The notes under the pieces were generated by a model. It was not told where the DNA came from. It saw only the letters and a list, made by a program, of their open reading frames with translations, and searched no databases. Positions 22,716 to 44,283 of a stretch of 54,140 bases of DNA are shown piece after piece. Numbering within the stretch: position 1 is the first letter of the stretch; every line of letters begins with the position of its first letter. Source of the DNA: a virus (taxonomy: Duplodnaviria > Caudoviricetes); the IMG/VR virus record IMGVR_UViG_3300033489_000011, positions 1 to 54,140 of that record. One strand, given 5' to 3'. Made by a program: the position numbers and the translations under genes.

Positions 22716-22728
22716 GGAGGCGGGGACC

Positions 22729-23745: not shown

Positions 23746-23747
23746 CT

Positions 23748-24608: not shown

Positions 24609-24667
24609 TAAAAGCCGCCGCGGGGGATCCCTGCGGCGGCAACATAAAAACAAAAAGGAGATTAGCC

Positions 24668-26428: not shown

Positions 26429-26440
26429 AGAATAAAAATG

Positions 26441-26469
26441 TTGACAAAAGCAAGAAGGTGAACTAAGTT
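26441..26469 (+). promoter_or_regulatory. Putative sigma70 promoter
   Basis: TTGACA-17 bp-TAAGTT upstream of the DUF488-like gene. Confidence 0.45.
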
Positions 26470-26506
26470 AAAACTATGAAATAACAAATGAAAAAGGTGA
26501 ATCGAA

Positions 26507-26848: not shown

Positions 26849-26858
26849 CCCACCAACG

Positions 26859-26893
26859 GGCCGGTGAATATCCATTCGCCGGCCTCTTTTTTT
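26859..26893 (+). terminator. Intrinsic terminator ending the accessory island
   Basis: GGCCGGTGAAT..ATTCGCCGGCC followed by T7. Confidence 0.75.
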
Positions 26894-27173
26894 ATCCCGC
26901 CTATGATCAATTCACGCAAAACCCACATCATAATATCCCATCATCTGTTCAATGAATAAAAATCATCCAAATCTTAAAAATTTTGTCAATGGAATGGAAC
27001 GGAGTGGAATGGACGGGCTGGAACTCCCCCTTTTCCCTGTGCGATTCTGTAACCGCATGATGAACCCTTTTGATGGGTGCGCCGCCTTTTTTCACCTCCG
27101 GGGCGGCGCACCCGACGATATCCAAATCTGGGGACAGATTTGAAATCTGTCCCCAGATCCCCAGGGAGGCTTA

Positions 27174-27395
27174 ATGGCCTACACCGAAACCGATCTGACG
27201 AACGTCGAGGCCGCGATCCGCGCGCTGATGTCCGGCACGCGCAAGGTCAGCTTTTCAATGGGCGATAAATCCGTCACATACGCCCAGACGGATCTCGATG
27301 AGCTGCGCGAGCTCAAGCACGATATCCTGGGCGAAGTCCAGACCGTCGCTGCCCGCCCCCGCTTTTTCTTAGCCTCGACCGGGAAAGGATTGTGA
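27174..27395 (+). CDS. Head-tail joining protein, gpW-like
   Basis: MAYTETDL..VEAAI..L.SG..V..GDKSVTY..L.EL; directly upstream of the portal. Confidence 0.85.
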   Translation: MAYTETDLTNVEAAIRALMSGTRKVSFSMGDKSVTYAQTDLDELRELKHDILGEVQTVAARPRFFLASTGKGL

Positions 27396-28951
27396 CGATG
27401 ACACCTTCCTCATCCCAGACTGCTGTCCTGCCGTCCGCGCCCCCCGCGCCCGGCTACCTGCGCACCGTGGACGCCTATGGCAGGCCGATCCCGCGGGCCG
27501 CCGTTACCGGTCCCTTCGAAGGCGCCTCTGCCGGCCGCCGGATGAGCACCTGGGGCACCTCGACCGCGGGGCCAAGCGCCGCCCTTTTCTCATCGCTCAG
27601 GGACCTCCGCTCCCGCTCGCGGGAATTGATCCGCAACAACCCGCTGGTGGACGGTGGCGTCGACAGTTACGTCGCGAACATCATCGGCTCCGGGATCAAT
27701 CCCCGCTGGCAGGTGGACGATCCGGATATGAAAGAGGAGATCCAGAAGCTCTGGGAGGACTGGGTCTCCGAGGCCGATTTTTACGGCATGCTCAATTTCT
27801 ACGGCCTCCAGACCCTGGTCTGCCGCGGCCTGATCGATGCAGGCGAGATCCTCTTTCGCCTCGTTCCGCGCCGCCTCGAAGACGGCCTCTCCGTCCCGCT
27901 GCAACTCCAACTGCTGGAAGCCGACCACCTCGACGAGACATACAACACGATCGCCGCCGAAACCGGCAACGAGGTCCGCATGGGGATCGAGGTGGACGCC
28001 GACGGCCGGCGCGTCGCCTACCATCTCTGGGCGGAGCACCCGGGCGAAACCTTCATCCTGCAAAGGCCGATCCTCGAACGCCTCCGGATACCCGCCGCGC
28101 AGATCGGCCACGTCTATCGCCCGATCCGGGCCGGTCAGATGCGGGGCCGCCCATGGCTCGCCTCGATCATCGTCCGCCTCCATGAGCTCGATCAGTACGA
28201 CGACGCGGAACTGGTCCGGAAGAAGTGTGCCGCGATGTATGGCGGCTTCATTACCGAGGCGATCGGCTCCAACGTCGATCCCACGGCCTGGTTCGGCAAG
28301 AAAGCGGACGATGACAGCGAAGGCCGCGACGTGGTTGCACTCGAGCCGGGGACGTTCCCGATCCTCCCCCGCGGGATGGACGTGACGTTTTCCCAGCCGG
28401 TGGACGTCGGTTCGACCTATGAAGTCTGGATTAAGCAGCAGTTCCGGCAGATCGCCAAGGGGATGGGCGTCACCTACGAGCAACTCACCGGTGATCTTGC
28501 CGGCGTGAACTACTCCTCGATCCGGGCGGGCCTCCTCGAATTCCGAAGGCGAGTCGAGCAGCTCCAGCGCGAGATCCTGATCTTCCAGTTCTGCCGCCCG
28601 ATCGCGCACGCCTGGCTGGATGCCGCCGTCGGGTCCGGCGCGCTTTCGATCCCCGGATACTTCCCGAACCGCCGGATCTACCGCCGGATTAAATGGCGGC
28701 CCGACGGCTGGGCCTGGGTCGATCCGCTGAAGGATCAGGAAGCTGAACAGATGGCGGTCCGGAACGGCTTCAAGTCGCGCGCGAAGGTGATCGCGGAGCG
28801 CGGAGACGACATCGAAACGGTTGACAAGGAGATCGCCGAAGACAATGCCCGCGCGGATGAACTCGGCAACATTTACGATACCGACCCGCGCAAGACCGGG
28901 AAGGCCGGTAAGGGCGCCACCGCTGCCCCACCAGCCGATGGAGGAGAATGA
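27392..28951 (+). CDS. Portal protein, lambda family
   Basis: LRSRSRELIRNNP, LQLLEADHL, GQMRGRPW, LTGDL..VNYSSIRAG, WVDPLKD. Confidence 0.95.
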   Translation: MTMTPSSSQTAVLPSAPPAPGYLRTVDAYGRPIPRAAVTGPFEGASAGRRMSTWGTSTAGPSAALFSSLRDLRSRSRELIRNNPLVDGGVDSYVANIIGSGINPRWQVDDPDMKEEIQKLWEDWVSEADFYGMLNFYGLQTLVCRGLIDAGEILFRLVPRRLEDGLSVPLQLQLLEADHLDETYNTIAAETGNEVRMGIEVDADGRRVAYHLWAEHPGETFILQRPILERLRIPAAQIGHVYRPIRAGQMRGRPWLASIIVRLHELDQYDDAELVRKKCAAMYGGFITEAIGSNVDPTAWFGKKADDDSEGRDVVALEPGTFPILPRGMDVTFSQPVDVGSTYEVWIKQQFRQIAKGMGVTYEQLTGDLAGVNYSSIRAGLLEFRRRVEQLQREILIFQFCRPIAHAWLDAAVGSGALSIPGYFPNRRIYRRIKWRPDGWAWVDPLKDQEAEQMAVRNGFKSRAKVIAERGDDIETVDKEIAEDNARADELGNIYDTDPRKTGKAGKGATAAPPADGGE

Positions 28952-29025
28952 GGAATTGGGGGACAGATTTTAAATCTGTCCCCCAATTCCTCTGCGGCCC
29001 CGCCTGCCGATGGAGGAAACGATTG

Positions 29026-30354
29026 ATGGATAACAAAACCCTATATGCAGCCCATGCGGCCAGGATCTGCAACCGGCCGCTCCTGATCAATCCGGCCTAC
29101 CTGCCCGTGCTGTCGAGGTCGCTGGAGTTGCTGGCAATGGGGACAGATTTGAAATCTGTCCCCAAACTCGTGATCTTCCCGGATGCCTTCGGCGCCGTCA
29201 AGACGGAGGCGAAGTTCGATCTCCAGGACGGCGCCGCGATCATCCGCGTCTATGGCTTCCTCTCCTACCGGACGGAAGAATCGTGGTTTTTCGATGACGG
29301 CGGCACCTCCTACGAGGATATCCGCGAGCAGTTCCAGGCGGCGCTCGTCGATCCCGCCGTCAAATCCATTGTCCTGGATATCAACAGCCCGGGCGGCGAG
29401 GCGGCCGGCGTTTTCGACCTGGTGGATGAGATCTACCACGCCCGCGGCCAGAAGCCGATTCATGCCGTCTTCAACGAGGACGGTTTCTCGGCGGCCTTTG
29501 CCATCGCCTCGGCCGCCGACAAGCGTTACATCTCCCGGACAGGCGCGGCCGGTTCCGTGGGCGTGGTGGCCATGCACCTGGATCAAAGCGGCTGGGACGC
29601 CAACGCCGGCCTGGTCTTTACGCCCATCTATGCGGGAGCTCACAAGGTGGATTATTCCTCCCATGCGCCGCTTTCGCCGGAAGCGAAGTCCGCGCTGCAG
29701 GGAGACATCGACGCCGTGTATGCCATTTTCGTCAGTACGGTGGCCCGCAATCTCGGCCTGACGGAGGCGGCGATCAAGGCCACGGAGGCGGGCATTTTTC
29801 AGGGCAAGAAGGCCGTGGAACTGGGTTTTGCGGATGCCGTCATGCCGTGGAACAAGGTCATGACGAAACTAACCAATAGAAAGAACGGAGGAGTTATGAA
29901 AGCGGAACTTGAAAAGTTGTTCGGCGAGATGCGCGACAAGTTTCTCGCCCTGATCGGCAGCGATCCGGCGGAGGCGGTCAAGCAGGAAGTTGTGACCAAG
30001 GCGGACGCGGAACTCCTGGTCGTCGCCGCGGAAGAGGCGGCCAAAAAAGACGGCCACGCCGCCGGCCTCGTGGAAGGCGCGGAGGCGGGCAGGGCGGAGG
30101 CCCAGGCGCGGGCAATCGAGATCATGGAGATCTGCGCCCTGGCCGGCATGGAAAAGGACGCGCTCGGCTATATCAAGGATACGGCGCTGTCGGCTGAAAA
30201 TGTGCGTCTGAAGGTTGTTGAAGCCCAGGCCGCGGAAGCCGAGCAGACGCGGATCCGGAGTACCGTCTCGGCGACGACCACGGGCGAGCCGAACCCGTTG
30301 ATGGATGACGCGAAAAAGCGGGCGGCGGCCGGCATTTCGCTCGTCAAGAAATAA
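29026..30354 (+). CDS. Prohead protease S49 (gpC-like) with C-terminal scaffold region
   Basis: LDINSPGG, SAAFAIASAA, GSVGV, AVELGFAD; internal GGAGG+ATG near 29896 may give a Nu3-like scaffold; contains a palindrome-encoded MGTDLKSVP. Confidence 0.9.
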   Translation: MDNKTLYAAHAARICNRPLLINPAYLPVLSRSLELLAMGTDLKSVPKLVIFPDAFGAVKTEAKFDLQDGAAIIRVYGFLSYRTEESWFFDDGGTSYEDIREQFQAALVDPAVKSIVLDINSPGGEAAGVFDLVDEIYHARGQKPIHAVFNEDGFSAAFAIASAADKRYISRTGAAGSVGVVAMHLDQSGWDANAGLVFTPIYAGAHKVDYSSHAPLSPEAKSALQGDIDAVYAIFVSTVARNLGLTEAAIKATEAGIFQGKKAVELGFADAVMPWNKVMTKLTNRKNGGVMKAELEKLFGEMRDKFLALIGSDPAEAVKQEVVTKADAELLVVAAEEAAKKDGHAAGLVEGAEAGRAEAQARAIEIMEICALAGMEKDALGYIKDTALSAENVRLKVVEAQAAEAEQTRIRSTVSATTTGEPNPLMDDAKKRAAAGISLVKK

Positions 30355-30410
30355 CACATGGGGACAGATTTCAAATCTGTCCCCCATAAACAGAAAAAGG
30401 AGGATTAAAA

Positions 30411-31085
30411 ATGAGCCATCTGCATGAAGACAACAATTTGAGGGACATCCTGCGGTATGAGGATGACAGTGCGGGGCAGCTTTCCCGTGAGGTCGTGACC
30501 GTCGCGACCGGAGAGACGCTTTATCAGGGCGAGGTCATCGGCAAGAAAACCAAGGCGATTGCCACCACCGGCACGGCGGACGGCGGAAACTCTGGCGGCG
30601 GGACGGTAACCACGGTTACGCAGGGCTTGAAGTCCAAGCTCGGGACGTACACCATCGAGGCCATGACCATTGTTGTTTCCCCGCTGGAACAGGTGTTTCA
30701 GGTTCGGGACCCGGACGGGAATCTCCTGCCGGATGCGCTTGCCGTCGGCGCGTATACAAGCGACCAGATCAACTTCACGATCGTCGAGGGAAGCCCGGTG
30801 ATCGCGGAAGGCGACAAGTGGACTATCGCGATATCGGCAGGCAACGGCCAGGTGACGGCCATTTCCTTGTCGGCGGTGGATGGCACCTCTGAAGCATACG
30901 GCATCCTTACGGAAGATTGCACCGCAACGGCGGCGACCGAGGCCGTGGCTATCGTGAAAGATGCAGTAATCGTGGCAGCGAATGTCGTGTGGCCGGTAAC
31001 TTCGCCGGCTTGGTCAGCGGACGAGAAGGCGGCTGCCCTGGCGCAGTTGGCCGCAAAGGGTATCGTTGCGAGGGCGGAAGCCTAA
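30411..31085 (+). CDS. Head decoration protein (gpD-like, with inserted domain)
   Basis: LSREVVTV..G.VIG..DGTSEAYGIL..AALAQLAAKGIVAR; between protease and capsid. Confidence 0.85.
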   Translation: MSHLHEDNNLRDILRYEDDSAGQLSREVVTVATGETLYQGEVIGKKTKAIATTGTADGGNSGGGTVTTVTQGLKSKLGTYTIEAMTIVVSPLEQVFQVRDPDGNLLPDALAVGAYTSDQINFTIVEGSPVIAEGDKWTIAISAGNGQVTAISLSAVDGTSEAYGILTEDCTATAATEAVAIVKDAVIVAANVVWPVTSPAWSADEKAAALAQLAAKGIVARAEA

Positions 31086-31135
31086 GCGACCATGCGGGGA
31101 CAGATTTCAAATCTGTCCCCTGTGTGGCATAAATA

Positions 31136-31242
31136 ATTCGGGTTTCCCGGCGGGCTGATCCCCCAAAGGGAACGCAAGAAAGAATCAAGGCGGGCTGTAT
31201 GGAGCCATACCTCCATCGGCCCGCCTTTTTCTTTGCCCGGCA
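31136..31242 (+). ncRNA. Structured RNA element, copy 1 (upstream of major capsid gene)
   Basis: 100/107 identical to 41293..41399 with structure-compatible changes; includes a terminator-like stem + U tract. Confidence 0.65.
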
Positions 31243-31299
31243 ATCAATGGGGACAGATTTAAAATCTGTCCCCTGTAAACCAGAAGGAGGAAACGTAAA

Positions 31300-32316
31300 A
31301 TGATTCTCAATCCATTCGATCAAGATGCTTTCAACATGGTGTCTCTGACGCAGGCCATCAACATCCTGCCGAACCGATACGGCAGGGTCGGCCAGTTGGG
31401 GCTGTTCACCGACAAGGGCGTGCGTACGCGCACCGTCATCGTGGAGGAGCAGAACGGCGTTCTGAACCTGCTGCCCACCCTCCCGGTCGGCGCCCCGGGC
31501 ACGCAGAACAAACTCGGGAAGCGTATCGTCCGCACCTTCTCGGTCCCGCACATCCCGCTGGACGATGCGATCCTCCCCTCAGAGTACGAGGGGATCAGGG
31601 AGTTCGGGTCGGAAGCCAACATGAAGGCGCTGGCCGGGGTGATGAACGATCACCTCCAGGTGGCCCGAAGCAAGTTCGACATCACCCTCGAATTCCTTCG
31701 CATGGGCGCCCTGAAGGGGATCATCCTCGATTCCGACGGCTCCACCCTCTACAACCTCTACACGGAGTTCGAGATCAGCCCGGAAACGATAGACTTCGAC
31801 CTCGATACTGCGAGTCCCTTGGTCGATGTTCCGTCCAAGTGCCGCGAGGTCATCCGGTACATCGAGGACCATCTGATGGGCGAGGTGATGACCGGCGTCC
31901 GGTGTCTCTGCGACGCGACGTTCTTCGAGGCCCTCATCAACCACGCGAGCGTGAAGGCTATTTACTCGGGTTGGGCCGGCGCCGCTTCGCTTGCGGGAGT
32001 TGACCCCCGCAGAGGGTTTGCGCTTTCAGGCATCACGTTCGAAGAGTATCGCGGCGTGGCCACCGACAAGGACGGCACCCCGCGGCTTTTCATCGCGTCC
32101 GGCGAGGGTCACTGCTTCCCGGAGGGGACGCAGCAGAGCTTCAATACCATCTACGCCCCCGGCGATTTTATCGAAACGGTGAACACCGTCGGCATCCCGC
32201 TCTATTCCAAGCAGGAGGCGCGGAAGTTCAACCGCGGGATCGATCTCCATATCCAGAGCAACCCGTTGCCGATCTGCTATCGGCCGGCGATCCTGGTGAA
32301 GGTGACAAAGACGTAG
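31300..32316 (+). CDS. Major capsid protein (lambda gpE-like)
   Basis: SLTQAINILP, PHIPLDD.I, TLEFLRMGALKG, QSNPLPIC.RP; AGGAGG RBS. Confidence 0.95.
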   Translation: MILNPFDQDAFNMVSLTQAINILPNRYGRVGQLGLFTDKGVRTRTVIVEEQNGVLNLLPTLPVGAPGTQNKLGKRIVRTFSVPHIPLDDAILPSEYEGIREFGSEANMKALAGVMNDHLQVARSKFDITLEFLRMGALKGIILDSDGSTLYNLYTEFEISPETIDFDLDTASPLVDVPSKCREVIRYIEDHLMGEVMTGVRCLCDATFFEALINHASVKAIYSGWAGAASLAGVDPRRGFALSGITFEEYRGVATDKDGTPRLFIASGEGHCFPEGTQQSFNTIYAPGDFIETVNTVGIPLYSKQEARKFNRGIDLHIQSNPLPICYRPAILVKVTKT

Positions 32317-32388
32317 CAGGCGGGAACGGGGAACCTGGGGACAGATTTGAAATCTGTCCCCAGGTGATACGCGATGGGGGTAAGGCGC

Positions 32389-32697
32389 ATGTCGCTTCGG
32401 GAAGACATACAATCCGCGCTCCCGGATATCTTCGCGGAAGGCGAGGAAGCCGTTTTCACGCCGGCCCAGGGAGAGCAAATACCCTGCATGGTCTTCATTG
32501 ATTTCAACGTGCAGCTCCAGCCGGCGGGCGTCGAGGCGGAGGTCTGGGAACGGGGAACCGTGATCGAGGCGCTCCTCTCGGAACTGGCCCGGGCGCCGGT
32601 CCGGGGCGAAACCTTCACCCTGGCCGGCGGGATCGTATACACCGTCCAGGCGATCCTGGAGAACGACGGCCTGACCGTCAAGGCGGTGGTGACATGA
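32389..32697 (+). CDS. Head-tail connector (FII-like)
   Basis: Position and size; GEEAVFTP..P.RGETF..Y.V..I.ENDG. Confidence 0.7.
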   Translation: MSLREDIQSALPDIFAEGEEAVFTPAQGEQIPCMVFIDFNVQLQPAGVEAEVWERGTVIEALLSELARAPVRGETFTLAGGIVYTVQAILENDGLTVKAVVT

Positions 32698-33302
32698 TCT
32701 CGGTAAAACTCAATCCGATAGACGTCGCCGATGTGAAAGCCATGCTCTCGCGGCTCTCCGCCGATGAGACGAACAAGGCGATGGCGCGCGGGATCAATAC
32801 GACCATGACCGGCGTCCGGACAGATGGCGTGAAGATCTTGTCTGAGCATTATGCCCTCACCGCCACGGCGATCCGCGAATCATGGAAGATCCGGAAAGCC
32901 CTGTTCCGGGATCCCTCCGGCGTCGTTTCGAGCAAGGGGACGTTCATCCGTCTGATCAAGTTCGGCGCGCGGCAGAACAAGTCCGGCGTCTCCGTCAAGG
33001 TCCTCCGGAGCAAACCCCGCGCGACGGTCGAGCACGCATTCATCGCGAAAATCAGAGGGGATCAGAAAGAGGAGCAGGTCTACTGGCGCAAGTATAAAGG
33101 CCCCCATAAAAAGCCGGTCGCCGGCCGGGCCTATGCGCGGATGCCGCGTGAATACAAATTCCCGGTCCAGGCGCTCTATGGCCCACGCATCCAGGACCAT
33201 CTCGGCGATCCGGGGATCATGGGCACCTTGACCAAAATGGCCGGGGAGAGGCTGAGCAAGAACATGGAGCGTGAAGTGGATTCGATCTTGAGGGGGTACT
33301 GA
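32694..33302 (+). CDS. Minor tail/neck protein (gpZ-like)
   Basis: Basic; AMARGINTT..FGARQ..GVSVKV..HAFIA..LYGPRI. Confidence 0.8.
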   Translation: MISVKLNPIDVADVKAMLSRLSADETNKAMARGINTTMTGVRTDGVKILSEHYALTATAIRESWKIRKALFRDPSGVVSSKGTFIRLIKFGARQNKSGVSVKVLRSKPRATVEHAFIAKIRGDQKEEQVYWRKYKGPHKKPVAGRAYARMPREYKFPVQALYGPRIQDHLGDPGIMGTLTKMAGERLSKNMEREVDSILRGY

Positions 33303-33769
33303 TGACCGACACCATCCGGGAGCTTGTCATCCAGAGCATCGTCGCACGGGCCGCCGTCATCCTGCATGTCGCCTCGCCGCCCAGCGGCTACGAGACCGAC
33401 TGCGGGGAAACGGTTCTCCGCGCGCGCCCGAAGGTGGGGCCGGATGACCTTCCCTGCATCGTCGTCTGGCCTCAGATCGAGGAGGCGGAAAACACCCATG
33501 GCCAGTCCCGCCACCGGATGCCGGTCCAGGTCGACGGCCTGGTGAAATTCGGCGCGGTCGATCCGTCGATCATGGCGGAGCGCATCCTGGGCGACCTGAT
33601 CAAGTGCTTCACCTCGCCCCTGTGGAGCCGCTCCCCGGACTACATCGAATCGATCGTCTATCAGGGCGGCGGCGGCCAGGCCCCGGAAGAAGGTTCCGTA
33701 TCCGTCGGCGCGCAGGCGAAATTTCTGGTCACCTATTGGACGAACACGGGGGATCCGTACACGCGATGA
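33302..33769 (+). CDS. Tail terminator (gpU-like)
   Basis: TIRELVIQ..DLPCIVVW..ILGDLIK..Y.T..GDPY. Confidence 0.75.
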   Translation: MTDTIRELVIQSIVARAAVILHVASPPSGYETDCGETVLRARPKVGPDDLPCIVVWPQIEEAENTHGQSRHRMPVQVDGLVKFGAVDPSIMAERILGDLIKCFTSPLWSRSPDYIESIVYQGGGGQAPEEGSVSVGAQAKFLVTYWTNTGDPYTR

Positions 33770-34287
33770 ACGAGCCGAAACCCATATTGATCATCACCGG
33801 ATCGGCGCCCTGCGTGATGGAAGACATTGATGCCCTCGGCCATGGGGACAGATTTGAAATCTGTCCCCATGGCCATGGCGACTGGATGGCCGTCGGTCTG
33901 GATGCCGTGGACAAGTATGCCTGGCCGATCAAATATGTCGTCACCTATCACCCCGTCGAGATCCCGCAATTTAAACCGAAGCGAGCGAAGATCGGAGGGA
34001 ATACGGACTTTCTCGTGATCGCCCATAAGCCGGAGCCGGGCGTTGATATCGTGGAGCCATACGAGTCGCCTACCGGGTCATCCGCCCTTTGCGGGGCGAT
34101 GGCGGCGATCAGAATGGGATATGAAAGGATCATCCTATGCGGCTGCCCCTTACTCGATAAGAATTACATCACCTTTCAAAAGGGATGGGAGAAAAAGAAG
34201 GAAATCGTAAAAGACAAGGTCCGGTCGATGTCGGGATGGACGAAAGATTTTCTTGGCGCACCGACGAAGGAGTGGCTTGATGCTTAG
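33766..34287 (+). CDS. Rossmann-like transferase (Maf/DUF115/GT29-like), with in-frame palindrome insertion
   Basis: LIITGSAPC, GSSALCG..A..MGYERIILCGCPL, VRSMSGWT. Confidence 0.55.
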   Translation: MNEPKPILIITGSAPCVMEDIDALGHGDRFEICPHGHGDWMAVGLDAVDKYAWPIKYVVTYHPVEIPQFKPKRAKIGGNTDFLVIAHKPEPGVDIVEPYESPTGSSALCGAMAAIRMGYERIILCGCPLLDKNYITFQKGWEKKKEIVKDKVRSMSGWTKDFLGAPTKEWLDA

Positions 34288-34308
34288 TTACAGCGGAGGC
34301 TTTAGAAC

Positions 34309-35991
34309 GTGGCGCTAACAATAGCTATAGAAGGTAAGGGCATTATTGCTAACGCAGATGCGACTCCGGATTCCGCAATGGCTGGTAGTCTATGGGACGA
34401 GCTCGGCGCGGGGACAGACGCCTTCACCACTTATGTCCGTTTGTATGGAACAACCAGTTTCGGCGGCGCTTATTCTGCGAAGGCTGGCTGGCAGTATTAT
34501 GACATCGGCGCGGCAAACGTCCTCGACTTCACTCAGAGTCCCGCCGGAGCGCAGAAGGATCAGTATATTTGGCTGTGGGTATCGGTCACGACCATTGGAT
34601 TGATTCAGACCAAGGCCAACAAGGGATTAACTATACGCATTGGTTCAAGCCTTACGGACTACCGCGAATATGTCATCGCTGGAAGTGACGATGCGAATGA
34701 GTGGAAGGGCGAATGGAAATGCTTCGTGATGGACCCCACGCTGCCAAGTACCTCCGGAATGGGCGCTGGAACACTTAACCTTGCGGCAGTCCGCTACATG
34801 GGATTCTACATTGACAATACGGCCTTGTTTGCCAGTCCTTGCATCTTTATGTCGCAGATCGCAGTCGGTAAAGGGCTTCGGATAACTGGTGATAGCACAA
34901 CGGCCTGGGAGGATGTTCTTGCTTGGTGTACCGATTATCCGAACCGTGCATGGGGTATGTTCACAGAAAAAGAAGGCATCGCTTTTGTACTGGGCAAGGT
35001 ATTTATAGGCGACACGGCGCAGGGGGCGGCCACCTCGTTTAGGGGCTACGGTAGCATCCTTAAGTGGGCGAAGTCTGAATTTTGGGATGGTAGCGCATGG
35101 GTTCCTTCATACCCCGTAACCGCCTGCGGAATTGAAGTGCAGGATAATGACAGCTTTCCAACGACTTTCGAGGATGGAATTATAGTCGGGACAGATAGTG
35201 GTCGCGGAGGAAGCCAGTTCATTGGTGATGGTACCACAACAGTTTCGTTTGATTTATATGCAGGAGGCCATGCTGATTCAATGACGGCCTGTTACGGAAC
35301 TGCTTTCAAGAAAATGAAAGGGACGTTCAATTTTGGGAATGACAGCGATCATAAGGTGTATGCCTGTAGCTTTGTGGCATGTAGTCAAGTCGATCCTGTT
35401 GGCGGCCCTGAGATAAGGAACTGCATTTTTGCGGAAACGGCAGACGCGGAAGGCGCGCTGTTATGGAACGCCAGTATCAACATAGCGGATTGTAAGTTCA
35501 TCGCTAACACAATCGGCGCGGCGATCCGGCACCTTGTTGGCGGTCCCGCATCGCCTCCCGCGCATTACGACTATGATGCGTTGACGTTCTCTGGCAATAC
35601 CTACGATATAGAAAATGCTGCCACAACGCCGAACTTCTACATTGATATTGACAGGATCAACGGCTCGAATCCAGATAGCGGGAAGATAAACAATTCAGCG
35701 GGCGGCACCACTGTTCTTCTTGAGATCGGCGTGACGCTGCAATTGACAGGCCTCGTTAGCGGTTCTGACATAACGATCCTCGATGCAGGGACTGAAGACG
35801 AGCGCGTGAATGTGCAGGAAAACTCGGGCACGACTTACAATTACGGCTACGATTACGCCGCGAGCGACTACGTGGATATCGGCGTATTCAAGGCGGGATA
35901 CGTTCCTTATTATGTGAGGAATTACTTGTTGGCAGCGACGAATGGAAGCCTGCCTATCGCGCAGGAAATAGACAGATACTATCTTGAATAA
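34309..35991 (+). CDS. Putative virion protein (beta-rich)
   Basis: 560 aa, G/T/D/S-rich, in the morphogenesis operon. Confidence 0.6.
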   Translation: MALTIAIEGKGIIANADATPDSAMAGSLWDELGAGTDAFTTYVRLYGTTSFGGAYSAKAGWQYYDIGAANVLDFTQSPAGAQKDQYIWLWVSVTTIGLIQTKANKGLTIRIGSSLTDYREYVIAGSDDANEWKGEWKCFVMDPTLPSTSGMGAGTLNLAAVRYMGFYIDNTALFASPCIFMSQIAVGKGLRITGDSTTAWEDVLAWCTDYPNRAWGMFTEKEGIAFVLGKVFIGDTAQGAATSFRGYGSILKWAKSEFWDGSAWVPSYPVTACGIEVQDNDSFPTTFEDGIIVGTDSGRGGSQFIGDGTTTVSFDLYAGGHADSMTACYGTAFKKMKGTFNFGNDSDHKVYACSFVACSQVDPVGGPEIRNCIFAETADAEGALLWNASINIADCKFIANTIGAAIRHLVGGPASPPAHYDYDALTFSGNTYDIENAATTPNFYIDIDRINGSNPDSGKINNSAGGTTVLLEIGVTLQLTGLVSGSDITILDAGTEDERVNVQENSGTTYNYGYDYAASDYVDIGVFKAGYVPYYVRNYLLAATNGSLPIAQEIDRYYLE

Positions 35992-36003
35992 AGGAGAACG
36001 AAG

Positions 36004-37674
36004 ATGGCAAAGATAATTGATCCCGATGATTTGGTACCAAGCTCGACTGAGGGAAACCTCGGCGTTGACGGGAACATCTGGCTTGACACGACGCTCAAGA
36101 CCTTTGAGCTCGCACCGTATGGGGAACTCGCTGCAAAGACCGGTGTGACAGGGAATGCGATATGGGCAAAGTTCATCGACCTGTGGGCTACCGCATCGTA
36201 TCAACCATTCCCGTTCCCCATGAACATCCTCGATGCCCGGTCCGGTCAGTATATCTTCGGGCAGGACCCGGGAGGTTCCTACAATGGATGGAAACCGGAA
36301 GGGGATGTAACCCGGCAGATGATCCGCGATGCAGGATGGTCAGAGTATAACGCTTCGGGCGATCATCAACGGCAGTATGTCGGCATTGTGGCTCTCGCAT
36401 CCGGCTTTCCGGGAGGAGCGCAGCTTTATTATCAGAAGGCAACAGCGGAAGCCGCGGCTGACTTCACCTTCGATGATGCGCCGAATGAGGCGATCCAAGT
36501 ATTCGGGGATGTCTATAATGGCGACTTCGATGATCGAACGTTCTTTAAGTTGTTCTGCCGTGAGGAAGCGTATCTGTATGATGACGCTGTTTTGGGCGAC
36601 GTCGGTGAAACGGCTACCGGTGCCTACAAGATTCAGTTGCCGATTGCGGTCGGCTCTGATCTCAATATCACCGACACGGATACGAATGTTGGAGCAAACT
36701 CTCCCTACACGCAGATCGTCATAAAGTATTTCGACACGGCCTATCAGAAGGACGTTGACCTCGACGCAACGCCCCGGAGCTTCGGCATCGTTGTCGATGT
36801 AGGCACACATTCGGGAGTGGACGGCGTAGTGGTGGCTTCCCCGGCGAATATCTTGACAACGGCGGAAGGCGGGATCACGCCTGATCTGTATAACGGCGGG
36901 ACCCTGACCATCCACACCGGGACGGACGCAGGAAGAATTGTCAGCATCACCGATTGCGATGCGACCACTATCACAGTCGATGCTTCACCCGCCCTTTCGG
37001 CAGACACCGGCCTTTGCTTCACGGCGCAAAGAGCGACCCCCATTGTGGCGACGCTGAAGGAGATTTACACGAAGGTTCAGTATCAGTTGCGGCAGGATTC
37101 CAATATCAATGACATTGGAGGAACGATTAACGGTAAGACCGCCGACCTGCTCCTGAATTTCGTCGGGCCTACACTGATCTGCGGCTTTTATGAACCGGCG
37201 AACTCCGAGGGCGGCGGCAGCGGTGTTATGGTCGAGGGGATCAAGGCGGCTGATATCAATAGCATCATCTTCCATGACAACGGTGATGTTGAGCGTGAAT
37301 ACCCGTATGCCTCTGCCGGAACGCTTTACTTCAATGCGGCCTTGACGCAGGGCGGCACAGGCTATTACCGGATGTATTTCACGACCACGGTTGGTGGTGA
37401 CGACTATGGGGAGGCAACCGCCATCACGGTCAACGATGCTGACGGGAACCCAATCGCCGGGACCATTACAGGAGCAAGCAAGGCGTTCACCTTTGACTAC
37501 ACCGGGAACACGCAGGGAGGCCGGGTGTTGTCGCCGTTGCTTGATGCGGACGTAACGGTTGTCGCGGGAAATGCCGGGAGCGCAAAGCCGGTTGTGGCAA
37601 CGGGAACCATTGACCAAAGTAAGACCATTTCGATCACGTTGACGGCTGAAACCGATAGAGCGTATCTGCCGTAA
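36004..37674 (+). CDS. Putative virion protein
   Basis: MAKIIDPDDL.., acidic T/G-rich; AAGGAG RBS. Confidence 0.6.
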   Translation: MAKIIDPDDLVPSSTEGNLGVDGNIWLDTTLKTFELAPYGELAAKTGVTGNAIWAKFIDLWATASYQPFPFPMNILDARSGQYIFGQDPGGSYNGWKPEGDVTRQMIRDAGWSEYNASGDHQRQYVGIVALASGFPGGAQLYYQKATAEAAADFTFDDAPNEAIQVFGDVYNGDFDDRTFFKLFCREEAYLYDDAVLGDVGETATGAYKIQLPIAVGSDLNITDTDTNVGANSPYTQIVIKYFDTAYQKDVDLDATPRSFGIVVDVGTHSGVDGVVVASPANILTTAEGGITPDLYNGGTLTIHTGTDAGRIVSITDCDATTITVDASPALSADTGLCFTAQRATPIVATLKEIYTKVQYQLRQDSNINDIGGTINGKTADLLLNFVGPTLICGFYEPANSEGGGSGVMVEGIKAADINSIIFHDNGDVEREYPYASAGTLYFNAALTQGGTGYYRMYFTTTVGGDDYGEATAITVNDADGNPIAGTITGASKAFTFDYTGNTQGGRVLSPLLDADVTVVAGNAGSAKPVVATGTIDQSKTISITLTAETDRAYLP

Positions 37675-37684
37675 GGAGTAGCGG

Positions 37685-38305
37685 ATGGGGATGACGTTTG
37701 ATGGGCCAACGAAGGTAATCACGCTGACGACCGGAACAGTGGCCGTCAGCGTGAGGGACCTGTGGAGCAGGTGGGTGGACTGGTTTCTGACCGGTGATAA
37801 TTCCAAGTATCTGCCTGCGTTTGCCCAAGTCGGAGGCGATCCCATTGACGAGGCGGAAGGTCTTTACATTCCGGTCTATGCCTTCCTGATGAACGGGTGG
37901 AAGGTGAAGCCGCAGGAGGCGAACCATACGCTCACGGTCAGCGACGGCATCCTCCTGGTGAACGGCGGCGGCGATCCGTTCAACGACACGGACGGGAGTT
38001 ATGTCGTCAGAATCAATTATCAGCAACCTGTTCAAGCGATAAGTTTCAGCACGGAAGGCGGCGGTGGACCGACCTCGGCGGCTATTGCGGATGCTGTTCT
38101 GACAGAGCTTATCGCGGATCATAAGGCTGCGGCGGGGAGCCTGGCGGCTGCTATAAACGAAATCTGGCAGCGGCAGGCGGGAGTTAAGCTCGTCGCCGAT
38201 AGGGATTTGAATACGATCAAGGTCTATGACTCAGATGGCTTGACCTTGCTCTTTACGCTTACAAGGACAACGGTGGGAAATGTTGACACTTACACAAGGA
38301 GCTGA
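37685..38305 (+). CDS. Putative virion protein
   Basis: TFDGPTKVI..DLWSRWVDW..GGDPID..FLMNGW. Confidence 0.6.
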   Translation: MGMTFDGPTKVITLTTGTVAVSVRDLWSRWVDWFLTGDNSKYLPAFAQVGGDPIDEAEGLYIPVYAFLMNGWKVKPQEANHTLTVSDGILLVNGGGDPFNDTDGSYVVRINYQQPVQAISFSTEGGGGPTSAAIADAVLTELIADHKAAAGSLAAAINEIWQRQAGVKLVADRDLNTIKVYDSDGLTLLFTLTRTTVGNVDTYTRS

Positions 38306-38625
38306 TGATGCCCGATCAGGTGGTATACGCAACGGGCGGCTTGCTGACGGACAACGGCCAGGCGGATCTCACGGCGTTCGCGTCGGCGGGGCTGTTCTCC
38401 AGGATCGTCGTCATCGTGGTGTTGCCGGAGAGGGAGCTTTATGCCCTCCACCGGCAGTTGAAATTACTGTCGGAAACCCGATTATTCGAGCTGACGGGGC
38501 TCAGGGTTGTCGTGCTGTATGCGAGGGAAGCGGAGCCTGAGATGGAAGCGGCGGACAGGAACGTGACGCTGATGGCGGGCGATCGGAATTTCGAGCTGAT
38601 AACCGATGAGGAATTAACATGGTAA
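38305..38625 (+). CDS. Hypothetical protein
   Basis: Translationally coupled. Confidence 0.5.
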   Translation: MMPDQVVYATGGLLTDNGQADLTAFASAGLFSRIVVIVVLPERELYALHRQLKLLSETRLFELTGLRVVVLYAREAEPEMEAADRNVTLMAGDRNFELITDEELTW

Positions 38626-38930
38626 GGTCATTCCCCGACAAGCAGCCCTACGAAGAGTTTTTTGTCGTGTTCAATTTCTATCGGTTGCTCTCGCGGACAA
38701 ATGACTCCATCGCAACGGTGGCGGAGCTTAAAGCATTTGACGCCGACGGCGTTGACCAGACAACCTCTTTCATTGACGCCGGCGAGCAGGTGATAGCGAC
38801 ACCGCGCGTGTTCGCTTGGGTGAAGGGAGGAACGCCGCAGAGATACCGTCTCGTCTGCAAGATCACGACGACAGGCGGCAAGAAATGGCAGATGGTCGGA
38901 TATCTGACCGTAGTCGAGGGGATAACATGA
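38619..38930 (+). CDS. Small virion adaptor-like protein
   Basis: KQPYE..FNF..WVKGGT..YRLVCKITTTGG. Confidence 0.55.
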   Translation: MVRSFPDKQPYEEFFVVFNFYRLLSRTNDSIATVAELKAFDADGVDQTTSFIDAGEQVIATPRVFAWVKGGTPQRYRLVCKITTTGGKKWQMVGYLTVVEGIT

Positions 38931-39520
38931 ACCAGCATGCCGAATGGAAGCAGCGCTTCGAGCGCGTATGGGACCCCAAAGGACAGGGGAAATACCGTAT
39001 GGGATCGCCCGGGCAGCGGCTTGTCCCGCGCTTTATCGAATGGGTGCCGAAGGGGTCGGTCGTCAACGAATACGGCTCGGGAACGGGCCGGGCCGTGGTG
39101 GAGTTGTGCAACGCCAGGCCGGACGTCCGGGTGAACATGGTGGACATTGCCGAGAACGCGCTTGAGGCCCCGGCGAAGGCGCTCGTCGGGGGCCGGGCGA
39201 CGTTCACCCTGTCGGCGCTGTGGGGCCTGCCGGAGAAATTCCCCGTGGCGGACTGGGGGTACTGCATCGATGTCCTGATGTGCGTCCCTCCGGACCGGCT
39301 CGACGACATCCTCAGGGAGATCCGTCGGACGTGCAGGAATCTGTTTGCCCAGGTGTACGACTGGGCGGACATCCGGCTCGACATCGACTACACGACGATC
39401 AAGGAAGGCCCGGAATGGTGGTACAGCAAGTTTTCTTGGTATTGGCCCACCGTGTCGAAAGTGAAGAGCAACGAGCACGCGCGGCGGTATATCTACCTGT
39501 GCCGGGGGGAGGAGCAATGA
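38927..39520 (+). CDS. Class I SAM-dependent methyltransferase
   Basis: VNEYGSGTGR, MVDIA, ADWGYCIDVL. Confidence 0.85.
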   Translation: MNQHAEWKQRFERVWDPKGQGKYRMGSPGQRLVPRFIEWVPKGSVVNEYGSGTGRAVVELCNARPDVRVNMVDIAENALEAPAKALVGGRATFTLSALWGLPEKFPVADWGYCIDVLMCVPPDRLDDILREIRRTCRNLFAQVYDWADIRLDIDYTTIKEGPEWWYSKFSWYWPTVSKVKSNEHARRYIYLCRGEEQ

Positions 39521-40026
39521 CGGGTTTGCCGGAATTCACTGTGCCGTTGAGCGAGGCCATGATAAAGACGGTGGCGCTGGGGAACGTCTACCTGAGCACC
39601 GAGCCGGACGTCTGCGTCGTTGGCAGCCCGCTGGCGCGCGGGTATTCGCTCTTCATTGCGGGCAAGGAAAAAGAGGGCCGGGCCGTCATCGAGGATTTTC
39701 TTGTGCGGGTGTTTCCTTCGCGCCGTGGAGAGATGTCCACACGGCAATTCGTCAATCAGATCTGTGCCGAAAAGGGATTGCCCCGGCCGATCGCGAACGA
39801 AAGGGTCGCTCCGGAGATTTTGAGGGAGGCGGCCGGCAGGCGGTTCGACAGGTTGCACCTGCCCCTGCTGCGGAGCATCCTGGCCAGGGGATATCGGCCG
39901 GAGCTCTCCCATCCCGTCACCATGCGGCAATCCGGCAACCGCTTCCTGGTGGTGGACGGGAAGAACCGCTGCTCGATCCTCGCGGCCCTGGGCGAGGAAG
40001 TCGTGTCAAACGTGAGGTTGTTATGA
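39517..40026 (+). CDS. ParB/Srx-like domain protein
   Basis: LLRSILARGY..PVT..LVVDGKNRCSILAALG. Confidence 0.6.
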   Translation: MTGLPEFTVPLSEAMIKTVALGNVYLSTEPDVCVVGSPLARGYSLFIAGKEKEGRAVIEDFLVRVFPSRRGEMSTRQFVNQICAEKGLPRPIANERVAPEILREAAGRRFDRLHLPLLRSILARGYRPELSHPVTMRQSGNRFLVVDGKNRCSILAALGEEVVSNVRLL

Positions 40027-40577
40027 TTCGATACCTGGACCGCGCCGGCTACGAGGCGAATGCCGTGAAGGACGATAAATGGCGCAGTCATAAGGCCCGG
40101 TGGCCCTATCATGTCGCGGCGATCGCCACCGTCGAATCCCTCGGGATCAAAGACGCGGGCGAGGTCCTGGAGATCGGCGCCTTCGGTGCGCAAATCGTCA
40201 TCGGAAGCGACACGATGGACCTGCCGCAGGGGGACTGGGAAATACCGGGGGCGCGATCGACGTATGCTCATGATGCGCGCGAGCTTCCCTGGCCGATAAA
40301 AACGGGAAGATATTCGCTGGTTGTCGCCCTGCGGGTATGGCATCACCTGTTTCCCCGGCAAAAGGAGTGCTTCCTCGAGGCGAAGCGGGTTGCGAAGCAC
40401 GTCCTGATTGTCTGCCCGGAAAAGGAAATCGTCGGCGTTGGGATCCGGCGCCGCCAATGGGATGACTGGAACGGAAGCCCGCCGATTCGCCAGGCGGAAT
40501 TGGAAGGGTGGGGCCGATTATATCTATTCAAGGGAGGACTCAATGGTAACGGTATGCTGCATCAAGCAGGGGAGTAA
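40023..40577 (+). CDS. Methyltransferase-like protein
   Basis: VLEIGAFG, HDARELPWP..YSLVVALRVWHH..F.EAKRVAK. Confidence 0.75.
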   Translation: MIRYLDRAGYEANAVKDDKWRSHKARWPYHVAAIATVESLGIKDAGEVLEIGAFGAQIVIGSDTMDLPQGDWEIPGARSTYAHDARELPWPIKTGRYSLVVALRVWHHLFPRQKECFLEAKRVAKHVLIVCPEKEIVGVGIRRRQWDDWNGSPPIRQAELEGWGRLYLFKGGLNGNGMLHQAGE

Positions 40578-41277
40578 GTACGGCCCGGAATACGTCAATA
40601 TCCTGCACGCGATGGTGGTGCGGAACACCTTCATTTTTGATTGGGATTTCGTCTGCTTCACGGATGACGCCGCCGGCATCGATCCGAAGATCCGGATCGA
40701 ACCTTTGCCGCATCCGGCGGTCGGATGGTGGGTGAAGATGGGGCTCTATCAGAAGGAAGTGCCGGGGATCGCCTCCGAGAAGCTGCTGTTCCTCGATCTG
40801 GATGTGGTCATTCCCGGATTCCTGGATCCCGTTCTGATATTCGAGTCCGACCATGCCTTGATTAAAGACTATCCCGCCGCCTATCTTCCCCCGGGCAATC
40901 ACCACCAAAAGGACGGCAACACCTCCGCGATTCTGCTCACAGTCGGATCGCGGGTGCATATCTGGGAGGCCTTTCTACGGGAAAAGAACCCGGCCGGGCG
41001 GTATTGGAGCGAGCAGGACTGGCTAAACAAGAAGCATCCCGGCTCATTCGACCTGCTGCCGGAGTCTATGGCGCAGAGCTACAAGCTGCACAAGCTGCAG
41101 GACAGGCGCCCGGAGTGCAGCATTGTCATGTTTCACGGGAAGCCCAAGCCGGCAGATTGTGGTGGTTGGGTTGCGGAGGAGTGGAGAACAAGCCGCCGGA
41201 AACGGCATAGGAAGAGCAATAGGGGACAGATTTCAAATCTGTCCCCGGAGGAGGATAAGAACAGGGGACAGATTTGA
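40543..41277 (+). CDS. GT-A fold glycosyltransferase (GT8-like)
   Basis: CIKQGSKYGPEYV, CFTDD, GWWVK, LFLDLDVVI (DxD), SEQDW, FHGKPKP; C-terminus reads into the palindromes. Confidence 0.85.
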   Translation: MVTVCCIKQGSKYGPEYVNILHAMVVRNTFIFDWDFVCFTDDAAGIDPKIRIEPLPHPAVGWWVKMGLYQKEVPGIASEKLLFLDLDVVIPGFLDPVLIFESDHALIKDYPAAYLPPGNHHQKDGNTSAILLTVGSRVHIWEAFLREKNPAGRYWSEQDWLNKKHPGSFDLLPESMAQSYKLHKLQDRRPECSIVMFHGKPKPADCGGWVAEEWRTSRRKRHRKSNRGQISNLSPEEDKNRGQI

Positions 41278-41292
41278 AATCTGTCCCCGGAG

Positions 41293-41399
41293 ATTCGGGT
41301 TTCCCGGCGGACTGATCATCCAAAGGGGACGCAAGAAAGAATTAAGGCGGGCTGTATGGAGCCATACCTCCAACAGCCCGCCTTTTTCTTTGCCCGGCA
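41293..41399 (+). ncRNA. Structured RNA element, copy 2 (upstream of tail tube gene)
   Basis: Paralogue of 31136..31242; bracketed by palindromes. Confidence 0.65.
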
Positions 41400-41488
41400 G
41401 CAGCCCCAGGGGACAGATTTCAAATCTGTCCCCTGGAGGAGATCAAAAATAACGCCGGAAGCGGCAAAACATGAAGGAGGAAATAGCG

Positions 41489-42514
41489 ATGTCAACAGCA
41501 GAGAACGCGAGAATTGATTATGAGTGCGGTCAGGATTCGGTAGCCATGACGGCGCTCACCGATCAGGGAGATCACAAGGATTTCCGGGGCCCCGATCCTT
41601 TGTGGTCTGGAAAGGCGGGCTTTTCGCCTAACGTAAAACCGGACGGCCTTGCCACCGGCGGGGCGGTTACTCCCGGAACGGCGGACGACACGGTCGACGT
41701 CGCGGCGCTGACCTGTTACCTGAGCGGCGTGCTGACTTCGGTCAACGCCGATCCCGCAAACGCAGTTGTCCGGCCGGCGGCATCTCCGGCAGGCCTGAAG
41801 GTTAAGCACTCCATCACGGTTACGTCGGCGGGTGCAATCGCTGTCGTGGCGGGTGTGGACGGCGCGACCTTTTCGGCCACCCGTGGCGCGGCAGGCGGCC
41901 CTCCCTACATCCTGCCGGATTCCATCGAGATCGCGCAGGTCTGGCTTACGGATGATGCGGCAGCGCCTGTGACCGCCGACGAGATCAAGCAGGTGGTCGG
42001 TTCGTCCTGCGAGCGCTATGACTATCCGACCTGGGAGGAAGCGAAGTTCAACGTGGATGCCGGGATCATCGGCAACGCGGGGATCGTGTTCGCCTCGGCC
42101 CTGCCGATGAGTCATTCGATCGCATCCCCGGAGACCCCCGAAACGAAGCAGGTCTTCGCGGAGTATTACGAGCCGGTGTTCACCGACGTGCCGAAGTCCT
42201 CGGATTTTGTGCCTCCGGAGACGAGCTACACCACGAGCTCCAAGAAGATTTACGGCGCGACGCTCGGGGCGACGTCGTCTTCGCTGAACCAGGGATCGTT
42301 CACCGCATACCTGCAGGATGGAATTTCGGACGGGATTCTCGGCCTCAAGGGCGACGTCCTGTTCTTCAAGTTCTATCAGAGCAAGTTCAATTCGCTGCCG
42401 TATCTGCTCTCACAGGGGATTCTCGGGGTGTCGCGCCAGTTCCCGGCAGGGGATCAGATCGTCGCGGCCTGCACGATTTCGCCTGAAACGGCGGCGGTGG
42501 AAGTGACCGGATAA
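41489..42514 (+). CDS. Major tail (tube) protein
   Basis: AGGAGG RBS; directly upstream of the frameshifting chaperone; A/T/S-rich. Confidence 0.7.
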   Translation: MSTAENARIDYECGQDSVAMTALTDQGDHKDFRGPDPLWSGKAGFSPNVKPDGLATGGAVTPGTADDTVDVAALTCYLSGVLTSVNADPANAVVRPAASPAGLKVKHSITVTSAGAIAVVAGVDGATFSATRGAAGGPPYILPDSIEIAQVWLTDDAAAPVTADEIKQVVGSSCERYDYPTWEEAKFNVDAGIIGNAGIVFASALPMSHSIASPETPETKQVFAEYYEPVFTDVPKSSDFVPPETSYTTSSKKIYGATLGATSSSLNQGSFTAYLQDGISDGILGLKGDVLFFKFYQSKFNSLPYLLSQGILGVSRQFPAGDQIVAACTISPETAAVEVTG

Positions 42515-42603
42515 AAGCACGGCATGGGGACAGATTTCAAATCTGTTCCCGGCTAAGCACATCGGGGGACAGATTTCAAATCTGTCCCCAAAAGGAGAAA
42601 AAA

Positions 42604-43869: not shown

Positions 43870-44283
43870 GTGATCGTTGTGGCTGAATTTAGTAAGGCGA
43901 GTAAGGAACGGCTGGCGACTTGCGATCCGCGCTTGCAACAGGTTTTCAATGAAGTCATCAAATTCTTCGATTGCAAGATTCTCGAAGGCCATCGCGGGAA
44001 GGCGGCTCAGCACAAGGCTTACATGGACGGCGACAGTAAGGTTGACTGGCCGGACGGCAAGCATAACTCGATCCCATCGAAGGCCGTTGACGCCATGCCG
44101 TACCCGATCGACTGGAACGACTGGAAGCGGATCTGTTACTTCGCCGGGTTTGTTGTCGGAATCGCAGCGCATCTGGGGATAATGATTAGATGGGGCCGGG
44201 ACTGGGATAGGGATACCGACCTGAACGATCAAACCTTTAATGATGGGCCGCATTACGAATTGGTGGAAGGAGGTATAAAATGA
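43870..44283 (+). CDS. Endolysin, M15-family L-Ala-D-Glu peptidase-like
   Basis: FSKASKERL..D.KILEGHR..Q..KHN..PSKAVD..IRWG.DW..DGPHYEL. Confidence 0.9.
   Translation: MIVVAEFSKASKERLATCDPRLQQVFNEVIKFFDCKILEGHRGKAAQHKAYMDGDSKVDWPDGKHNSIPSKAVDAMPYPIDWNDWKRICYFAGFVVGIAAHLGIMIRWGRDWDRDTDLNDQTFNDGPHYELVEGGIK

Follow-up and report, generated by a model that had tools for sequence, protein, structure and literature searches.

The stretch of DNA analysed here (the window) is the complete 54,140-bp viral record IMGVR_UViG_3300033489_000011 of a tailed phage (Duplodnaviria; Caudoviricetes), and its head-tail module holds two copies of a 107-nucleotide (nt) repeat that is the subject of this account. 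Copy A (31136-31242) lies between a head decoration gene (30411-31085, + strand, phrog_49) and a lambda-E-type major capsid gene (31300-32316, + strand), while copy B (41293-41399) lies before a gene at 41489-42514 (+ strand, phrog_30644) for which gene order alone suggests a major tail protein. That copy A stands before the capsid gene, as an initial annotation made from the sequence had it, is supported by the agreement of two family matches, Pfam Phage_cap_E (E 8.2e-105) and phrog_29, and the gene has a Shine-Dalgarno sequence, AGGAGG. The repeat is a real folded RNA belonging to a widespread, unnamed phage family that is built around a transcription stop signal, and from its position it probably controls the output of the most abundant virion proteins.

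The element is about 108 nt long and forms a three-way junction of a closing helix (P1), a small hairpin (P2) and a long GC-rich hairpin (P3). In copy A, for which the covariance-model match spans 31134-31242 (+ strand, 117.2 bits), the 5' strand of P1 (UCGGGU, 31138-31143) pairs with GCCCGG at 31235-31240, on the 3' side of the U tract. The P2 hairpin (31144-31172) consists of UUCCC/GGGAA and GGG/CCC beneath a CUGAUCC loop, and is followed by the junction ACGCAAG and an A tract that pairs with the U tract (31172-31184). P3, with a loop (CCAUAC) complementary to the 5' strand of its own apical stem, occupies 31187-31227, and the terminator-like U tract (UUUUUCUUU, 31226-31234) comes directly after it. 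Copy B (match at 41291-41399, + strand, 113.0 bits) has the same sub-parts at the positions of copy A plus 10157. A repeat search and a pairwise alignment agreed with the initial annotation on the place of the two copies, on their seven differences and on the compensatory pair among them. The copies are 93% identical, and a search of the whole 54,140-bp record returned these two only as full-length copies (E 2.3e-52 and 9.9e-43), its third match being partial, on the reverse strand and confined to the hairpin part. All seven differences are compatible with one fold: one pair in P2b is compensatory (GGG/CCC against GGA/UCC), two changes pass between wobble and Watson-Crick pairs (U-A to U-G in P2a and U-G to U-A in P3), and the remainder are a bulge shift in P3, one loop base and an unpaired base of an internal loop. 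The predicted folds have energies of -53.8 kcal/mol for copy A (z -4.56) and -50.7 kcal/mol for copy B (z -5.24), and for neither copy was any of 200 shuffled sequences equally stable.

A 27-nt piece of P3 led beyond this phage, as it is present in five other viral contigs, each with the whole element before a gene with a strong ribosome site, and in the same five contigs P2 shows compensatory changes. This 27-mer is identical in phages whose neighbouring proteins share only 53-66% identity. The first covariance model was built from seven sequences, the two window copies and these five contigs, and it recovered three further members, in which the long hairpin is a different one and which precede homologues of the tail-like gene. 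Relatives were then collected by three pattern scans, one on the junction and U run, one on P1 and the A tract, and one on P1, a CUGAUCA loop and the junction only. After filtering with the covariance model, the first scan gave 98 matches (81 distinct) and the second and third together gave 40 (29 distinct), so that pattern scans and model yielded about 110 distinct relatives in total, in viral contigs and prophages. The second scan, with its U-run-independent pattern GGGTT..ACGCAAGAAAGAA, returned mostly chance matches in coding regions, real members being found at 4 of 57 new loci.

In the first set, 93.5% of 2,875 cells are paired, compared with 73.8% in shuffled alignments and 47-57% when the pairing partners were slid by 1-3 columns; 28 of the 36 pairs change on both sides, and none of 500 shuffles reached any of the observed measures. 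The second set, for which P3 and both tracts (A and U) were left free in the selection and which includes no seed sequence, gives nearly the same values, with 94.1% of cells paired and double changes in 30 of 36 pairs. Both alignments were fitted to the model and so are biased towards the structure, but the slid controls and the independent set indicate that the covariation signal is real. Because G-U cells (355) far outnumber A-C cells (79), it is the sense strand that is the RNA. Covariation in a larger alignment, for which the initial annotation had looked ahead, is thus present in two sets, and the fold that it had drawn (a closing CGGG/CCCG helix, a small hairpin and a U tract pairing with an upstream purine tract) covaries in about 110 relatives.

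The three helices differ in what has been kept. P1 has six pairs, of which GGG/CCC is invariant and two covary (one of them being AU in 27, CG in 26 and GC in 13 sequences), and its 3' strand abuts the U run without a gap; since P1 covaries, the functional RNA must extend past the U run. P2 has five plus three pairs and a loop of 6-8 nt with GGCC (45), GAUC (20) or CCGG (17). The self-complementarity of the GAUC loop, to which the initial annotation had drawn attention, turned out to be a family trait, as a palindromic 4-mer is present in the P2 loop of 72 of 78 distinct P2 sequences, compared with 45% of shuffled loops. P3 has about 17 pairs and an A:U extension, with a GC-rich base and then a run of U5-8. 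The six pairs of the A:U helix are A-U in 25, 22, 16, 24, 23 and 27 cases and U-A in 0, 1, 0, 0, 0 and 0, while the pair that interrupts this helix varies freely (CG 7, AU 6, GU 5, UA 5). Pairing alone needs no such polarity, so the A-5'/U-3' arrangement points to a terminator-type U run after the hairpin. Among the 26 new true members from the third scan, the GC hairpin, the U run and GCCC are present in all 26, and GCCC is intact in 25 (the element of L293 is degenerate). A GC-rich hairpin followed directly by a U run, the sequence signature of an intrinsic terminator, is therefore found in both window copies and in 26 of 26 new members. Because hairpin and U run are constant and the polarity of the A:U helix is fixed, the P3/U-run core is taken to be a working terminator, as far as sequence can indicate. 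Conservation among unpaired positions is seen in the junction ACGCAAG, which holds a GCAA turn, in the GRYC of the P2 loop and in the GGNGCC of the P3 apex. Of 71 distinct P3 sequences, 67 have a loop that is perfectly complementary to the 5' strand of the apical stem, from which two bases separate it, and this gives the apex two alternative pairings that both covary (31197-31218 and 41354-41375 in the window).

The element has no counterpart in the named RNA families or in cultured phages that were searched. The Rfam comparison that the initial annotation had proposed gave no match to Rfam 15 in the whole window, the best sub-threshold score on 31080-31300 being 17.7 bits against a gathering score of 84. 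For 20 other element-bearing loci there were four Rfam matches, two to tRNA and two to group I introns, none of them on the element. The introns are an observation apart: one (L122:121-1048, - strand, 64.0 bits) lies just downstream of a 339-residue gene after the element, and the other is at L153:1216-2125 (- strand, 59.2 bits). A tRNA-like reading of the element was discarded, as ARAGORN detected neither a tRNA nor a tmRNA in the window. Two family members, compared by BLAST with 50,697 GenBank phage records, gave no match, and the capsid region likewise has no near match among the cultured-phage records. Full-text searches of the literature found no description of such an element, and the only source bearing on it was a 2023 survey of structured RNAs in IMG/VR, which, in the parts accessible, reports 8,495 unnamed candidates, 1,241 of them with predicted Rho-independent terminators, and five that are typically upstream of a major capsid protein gene (PMC10690425); those parts describe neither the anatomy nor a mechanism for an element of this type. 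The element may be among the candidates of that survey.

Where the element occurs is sporadic. Searches of genomes gave 15 full-length matches in 14 of 27 candidate loci. Syntrophorhabdus aromaticivorans UI has two copies, 47 kb apart and each before an HK97-type capsid gene, and the remaining genome matches are in contigs of metagenome-assembled genomes binned to several phyla. Assigning hosts to these carrier contigs is unsafe, because one of them, L095, proved identical to the viral contig L164, both being one contig of 57,741 bp. The model matched in 34 of 35 whole viral records, and the element is present in all nine records that are at least 90% complete. Most viral records have one copy, with two full-length copies in G003, G018 and G020; one further viral contig (L272) has two copies 1.1 kb apart, at 5005-5112 and 6177-6285. 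In the two-copy genomes for which the downstream genes were read, the window and G020, one copy precedes a capsid gene and the other a phrog_30644 gene in both. Among loci that were found through their proteins, the element is present in only 3 of 23 recovered with the tail-like protein and in none of 25 recovered with the capsid protein, and in the closest relative (L044), whose capsid protein is 88% identical, a plain spacer of 50 nt takes the place of the window's element and two palindromes. On these grounds the element, judged by its distribution, is a dispensable accessory cassette, and we propose that in this phage it was gained or kept twice. An all-against-all BLAST of open reading frames (ORFs), which could miss remote homologues, found no protein cluster common to all 10 complete carriers; the maximum was 6 of 10, for an integrase and for a connector/adaptor domain. 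With no protein family common to these ten, the element is probably acted on by the machinery of the host or by a factor peculiar to each phage.

The placement of the element is far more regular than its distribution. Downstream of it, on the same strand, there is a Shine-Dalgarno sequence and an ORF in 80 of 81 members, at a median of 31 nt after P1 (range 15-153), and the preceding gene mostly ends, with its stop codon, 5-28 nt before P1. In no member is the element at the end of an operon, and its orientation relative to the downstream gene is constant, so that it does not mark the end of a transcription unit. Together with the G-U bias, this constant orientation indicates selection at the RNA level. 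Nine bases (TTAAAAATY) that abut P1 are the sole upstream conservation, and no conserved -35/-10 was found within 70 nt upstream of the element; the A-rich box was excluded as a -10 promoter element because covarying P1 bases follow it by 1-2 nt. Copy B has no A-rich box, since there a palindrome abuts P1. As neither flank offers space or a signal for a promoter, the downstream gene can be expressed only if the polymerase transcribes through the element.

The downstream proteins were scanned for 75 of the 80 members, the near-duplicates L008, L090, L165, L082 and L169 being left out. Thirteen are major-tail-like proteins of about 140 residues that form one cluster, eight belong to phrog_30644, eight are HK97-type capsid proteins (Pfam Phage_capsid) and four are capsid proteins of phrog_1005; there are also two single capsid proteins (the window's own and that of L089), four scaffold proteins, about six prohead proteases and one collagen-like fibre protein, the remainder being without an assigned function. 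This bias to capsid, tail and scaffold genes is not what random intergenic placement in a late operon would give, which argues for the element acting in cis on the gene downstream of it. The initial annotation had suggested a cis-regulator of the two highest-copy virion proteins, and that suggestion is borne out to the extent that the leader position before capsid, tail and scaffold genes fits it across the family. Pairing of the P2 loop with a downstream GAUCA was considered and set aside: GAUCA is present within 60 nt downstream in 10 of 23 members with a GAUC loop, 4 of 45 with a GGCC loop and 6 of 13 others, several of the carriers are close relatives, and members with a GGCC loop have no matching pattern.

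The second gene of interest in the window, after copy B, probably starts at ATG 41489 rather than at the listed ORF start (41471), because this ATG follows the Shine-Dalgarno sequence AAGGAGG and matches the N-termini of homologues. The only family match of its product is phrog_30644, a PHROG without an assigned function. It lies after connector-like genes in the window, and in G001 and G010 the phrog_30644 gene is directly followed by a gene for a 170-residue protein and then the tape measure, a gene order from which a major tail protein is a fair guess. The initial annotation had called it a tail tube gene; the gene order fits, but searches of Pfam, solved structures and folds gave no confirmation. 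The protein has no Pfam match, the closest solved structure by sequence only reached E 0.11, its AlphaFold model has a mean predicted local distance difference test (pLDDT) score of 56 with no Foldseek match at E 0.001 or better, and the top VIA-align score (Z 7.9, to shoulder domains of tail-fibre/receptor-binding proteins) is within background. Separately, five element-free loci (L025, L033, L035, L040 and L042) have a small hairpin, GCC-GCAA-GGC, just ahead of the ribosome site of homologues of this gene and some 20-30 nt from the gene start, with the variants GCC-ACAA-GGC in L035 and L042 and GCC-GAAA-GGC in L040 and a loop of the GNRA type.

Each copy of the element in the window has palindromes on both sides, as the initial annotation had described. 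A perfect 25-nt palindrome (GGGGACAGATTTNAAATCTGTCCCC) is present in 13 copies, all within the head-tail module at 27130-42589, where 100 shuffles gave an expectation of 0. One is upstream of copy A (31096-31120) and one between it and the capsid ribosome site (31249-31273), two are upstream of copy B (41222-41246 and 41264-41288) and one is between copy B and the 41489 gene (41409-41433), so that five of the 13 are around the two elements. Three genes have palindromes on both sides, namely those for the decoration protein (30360 and 31096) and the capsid protein (31249 and 32337) and the 41489 gene (41409, then 42526 and 42565), and three palindromes are inside long ORFs (28959 and 29139 in 28948-30354, and 33844 in 33604-34287). 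At the portal/protease junction (28950-28992) the palindrome is extended by GAGGAATTG...CAATTCCTC complementarity into a hairpin of about 20 bp, which gives a weak covariance-model match (25.9 bits). The idea that element and palindrome array form one system did not survive comparison with other phages: none of eight relatives (L004-L008, L027, L039 and L043) has flanking palindromes, none appeared in the later member listings, L044 is without both in the same spacer, and the same palindrome is present in 12 other viral contigs. Since relatives carry the element without palindromes and other contigs carry the palindrome, the palindromes are, on these comparisons, a feature separate from the element; as RNA hairpins, they may stabilise the mRNA segments that they bracket.

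Set against known systems, the element is oddly built. With intrinsic terminators it shares a GC-rich hairpin followed by a U run and a 5' A tract able to pair with that run, but it has a covarying closing helix beyond the U run and a second conserved hairpin, its stem is unusually long, and it is inside an operon, 15-153 nt before a co-oriented gene. Like leader attenuators and riboswitch platforms, it is a conserved structured RNA in the 5' leader of a gene and ends in a terminator stem, but no competing antiterminator helix was found, its aptamer-like closing helix forms after the terminator, and it precedes structural virion genes and not metabolic ones. The T7 RNase III sites and the ompA and SP82 leaders represent mRNA processing hairpins and 5' stabilisers, with which the element has in common an intergenic position in phage polycistronic mRNA, where hairpins set the yields of neighbouring genes, and a 5' end held in a helix; those are simple hairpins, however, without a conserved U run or three-way junction. 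The HK022 put RNA and lambda nut are found just downstream of early promoters and are linked to read-through of terminators. They too are cis-acting phage RNAs of about 70-110 nt with two stem-loops and two copies per genome, but the element is mid-operon before late genes, has no conserved upstream promoter signal and holds a terminator. The element would seem, then, to work like an intrinsic terminator set in a leader, yet it is not a plain terminator.

Our preferred interpretation, to which we give a tentative probability of about 0.4, is a terminator-based leader that would gate or attenuate transcription into the high-copy virion genes. The element would be transcribed in the sense direction within the late polycistronic mRNA, and its P3/U-run core would stop any RNA polymerase not in a termination-resistant late state, the stop falling just before the genes whose products are needed in highest copy number. 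A polymerase that reads through would then make the 3' strand of P1. Since the pairing 3' strands are transcribed late, P1 and the A:U helix could form only after read-through, and they would lock the terminator into a closed rod and leave free both the CA-rich linker and, 15-40 nt downstream, the strong ribosome site. Such locking would prevent the pyrimidine-rich 3' half of the terminator from disturbing the adjacent ribosome site, and in an mRNA that has been processed the rod may in addition protect the 5' end. The absence of a protein cluster shared among carriers accords with reliance on the host's machinery or on an antitermination system particular to each phage.

Several points weigh against this interpretation. 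A terminator before the genes that are most needed is hard to understand unless the phage has a means of antitermination, and none of the genes in the window was recognised as coding for an antiterminator. A search for sequencing runs that hold the sequence listed two DNA runs, both from one study, and no RNA run. We know of no ordinary attenuator with anything conserved 3' of the U run, and P1 would be without influence on the termination decision, as its 3' strand is made afterwards. Nor would termination alone explain the conserved P2 loop, the ACGCAAG junction or the GGNGCC apex, and close relatives presumably express the same genes without the element. As to a switch, the folding of truncated RNA gave an energy signal for the apex in only 4 of 81 sequences, and no alternative helix competing with the lower P3 stem was found, only the apical one. 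The predicted accessibility of the ribosome site also changes little, being 0.61 with the native element, 0.53 with a shuffled element and 0.60 without P1 and P2.

What a terminator leaves over, P1 and the A-rich box, would be better explained by a processing site joined to a 5' stabiliser, a possible explanation although a less probable one. An endonuclease would cut in the A-rich box 5' of P1, and the three-way junction would cap the new end, protecting the capsid or tail mRNA from 5'-end-dependent decay and raising its yield over that of the upstream genes. The very 5' end is paired within P1, something that a protective cap would require, the single-stranded A/U-rich box directly 5' of it is the only conserved upstream sequence, and the element is tied to its downstream gene and not to operon ends. 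The high copy number of the virion proteins concerned, the lack of a phage-encoded factor common to the carriers, and the palindromes that also bracket the decoration, capsid and 41489 genes, in keeping with differential mRNA stability, are all in line with this. Any stable helix would suffice for such a cap, however, and yet the GC stem with its U run and the A-5'/U-3' polarity have been kept, the conserved P2 loop and junction bases would not be needed, and copy B is without the A-rich box. More doubtful again is a self-contained RNA device of an undescribed kind, a terminator clamped in a three-way junction, in which the junction, the palindromic P2 loop and the two-state apex would act on host machinery common to many phyla, either to make the polymerase termination-resistant, as put RNA does, or to form an exonuclease-resistant cap. 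The conserved unpaired positions (ACGCAAG, the GRYC of the P2 loop and the GGNGCC apex), along with the leader position and terminator stem, the combination that marks attenuators and riboswitch leaders, would also suit a sensor leader of the riboswitch or protein-binding type. In it the junction and loops would bind a host protein or a small molecule and so alter termination at P3 or translation, tying virion output to the state of the cell; carriers binned to several phyla would mean that the partner is universal. We think this improbable. The search patterns themselves dictated part of the conservation of junction and U run, mutually exclusive structures did not turn up, and P1 comes after the terminator, unlike in known expression platforms. 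Nor is it obvious why a capsid gene should be under metabolite control, and the binning of phages to hosts is unreliable, as the shared contig of L095 and L164 illustrates.

It is no more probable, in our estimation, that the element is a stable trans-acting non-coding RNA, set free from the late transcript by excision or by an end at the U run and serving, for example, as a decoy for a host RNA-binding protein. The pairing of its 5' and 3' ends in P1 is typical of stable processed RNAs, and it is compact and strongly folded with conserved loops, but an RNA acting in trans has no need of a non-random place before capsid, tail and scaffold genes, 15-40 nt from start codons; it has no conserved single-stranded seed, and close relatives do without it. 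Least likely of the readings considered is an ordinary bidirectional terminator on a selfish or drifting cassette, with the extra helices incidental. The GC hairpin is indeed between an A tract and a U tract, the reverse strand of the element also folds well (-53.2 kcal/mol, z -3.74), and the occurrence in 3 of 23 tail-like and 0 of 25 capsid loci, the empty site in the closest relative, and the P3 27-mer that stays identical while neighbouring proteins diverge are what such a cassette would show. The resemblance to mobile elements, such as miniature inverted-repeat transposable elements (MITE) or repetitive extragenic palindromic (REP) sequences, goes as far as the sporadic distribution and the empty site, yet there are no direct repeats at the ends and no target-site duplication on the flanks read. 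Moreover, P1 and P2 covary strongly in two independent sets, the strands are asymmetric in their G-U and A-C cells, and the element keeps the same orientation and placement with respect to the gene after it, away from operon ends. A plain bidirectional terminator was the outcome that the initial annotation had named as contrary to its proposal; all of the sequence features of a terminator are present, but the covarying P1 and P2 helices go beyond one.

Other features of the window are mentioned for completeness. Between the large terminase gene (15965-18238) and the head genes there is a DNA-modification-like gene block (18751-26848), which includes a Dam-like plus GNAT-like protein (19198-20475), three ParB-N-like proteins (20454-21368, 23748-24608 and 24668-26428) and a DUF488 protein (26507-26848) with a terminator-like site after it at 26858-26885. 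An endolysin-like gene (43870-44283, phrog_465) is situated in the tail module, between a putative tail protein and the tape measure (45428-48097).

The family is real, widespread and oddly built, while its function is something that we infer from sequence. From one late operon, tailed phages make capsid and tail-tube proteins in hundreds of copies but the neighbouring proteins in only a few, a difference that is put down mostly to the strength of ribosome sites, and to our knowledge conserved RNA devices for setting the yield of virion proteins are hardly known. The element described here is short, portable and strongly conserved, and it sits at the step-up points of the operon; all the carriers found are uncultivated phages or prophages, which would account for its lack of a name. 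Its anatomy, a terminator enclosed by a helix that would form only after read-through, leads to a clear prediction. If it is only a decorated terminator, it would be a modest addition to the catalogues of RNA families; if it raises or gates expression alone, it would be a compact part for engineering expression within operons; and if the clamped terminator is a device sufficient in itself, diverse phages would be switching on or boosting their capsid and tail genes without any phage protein.

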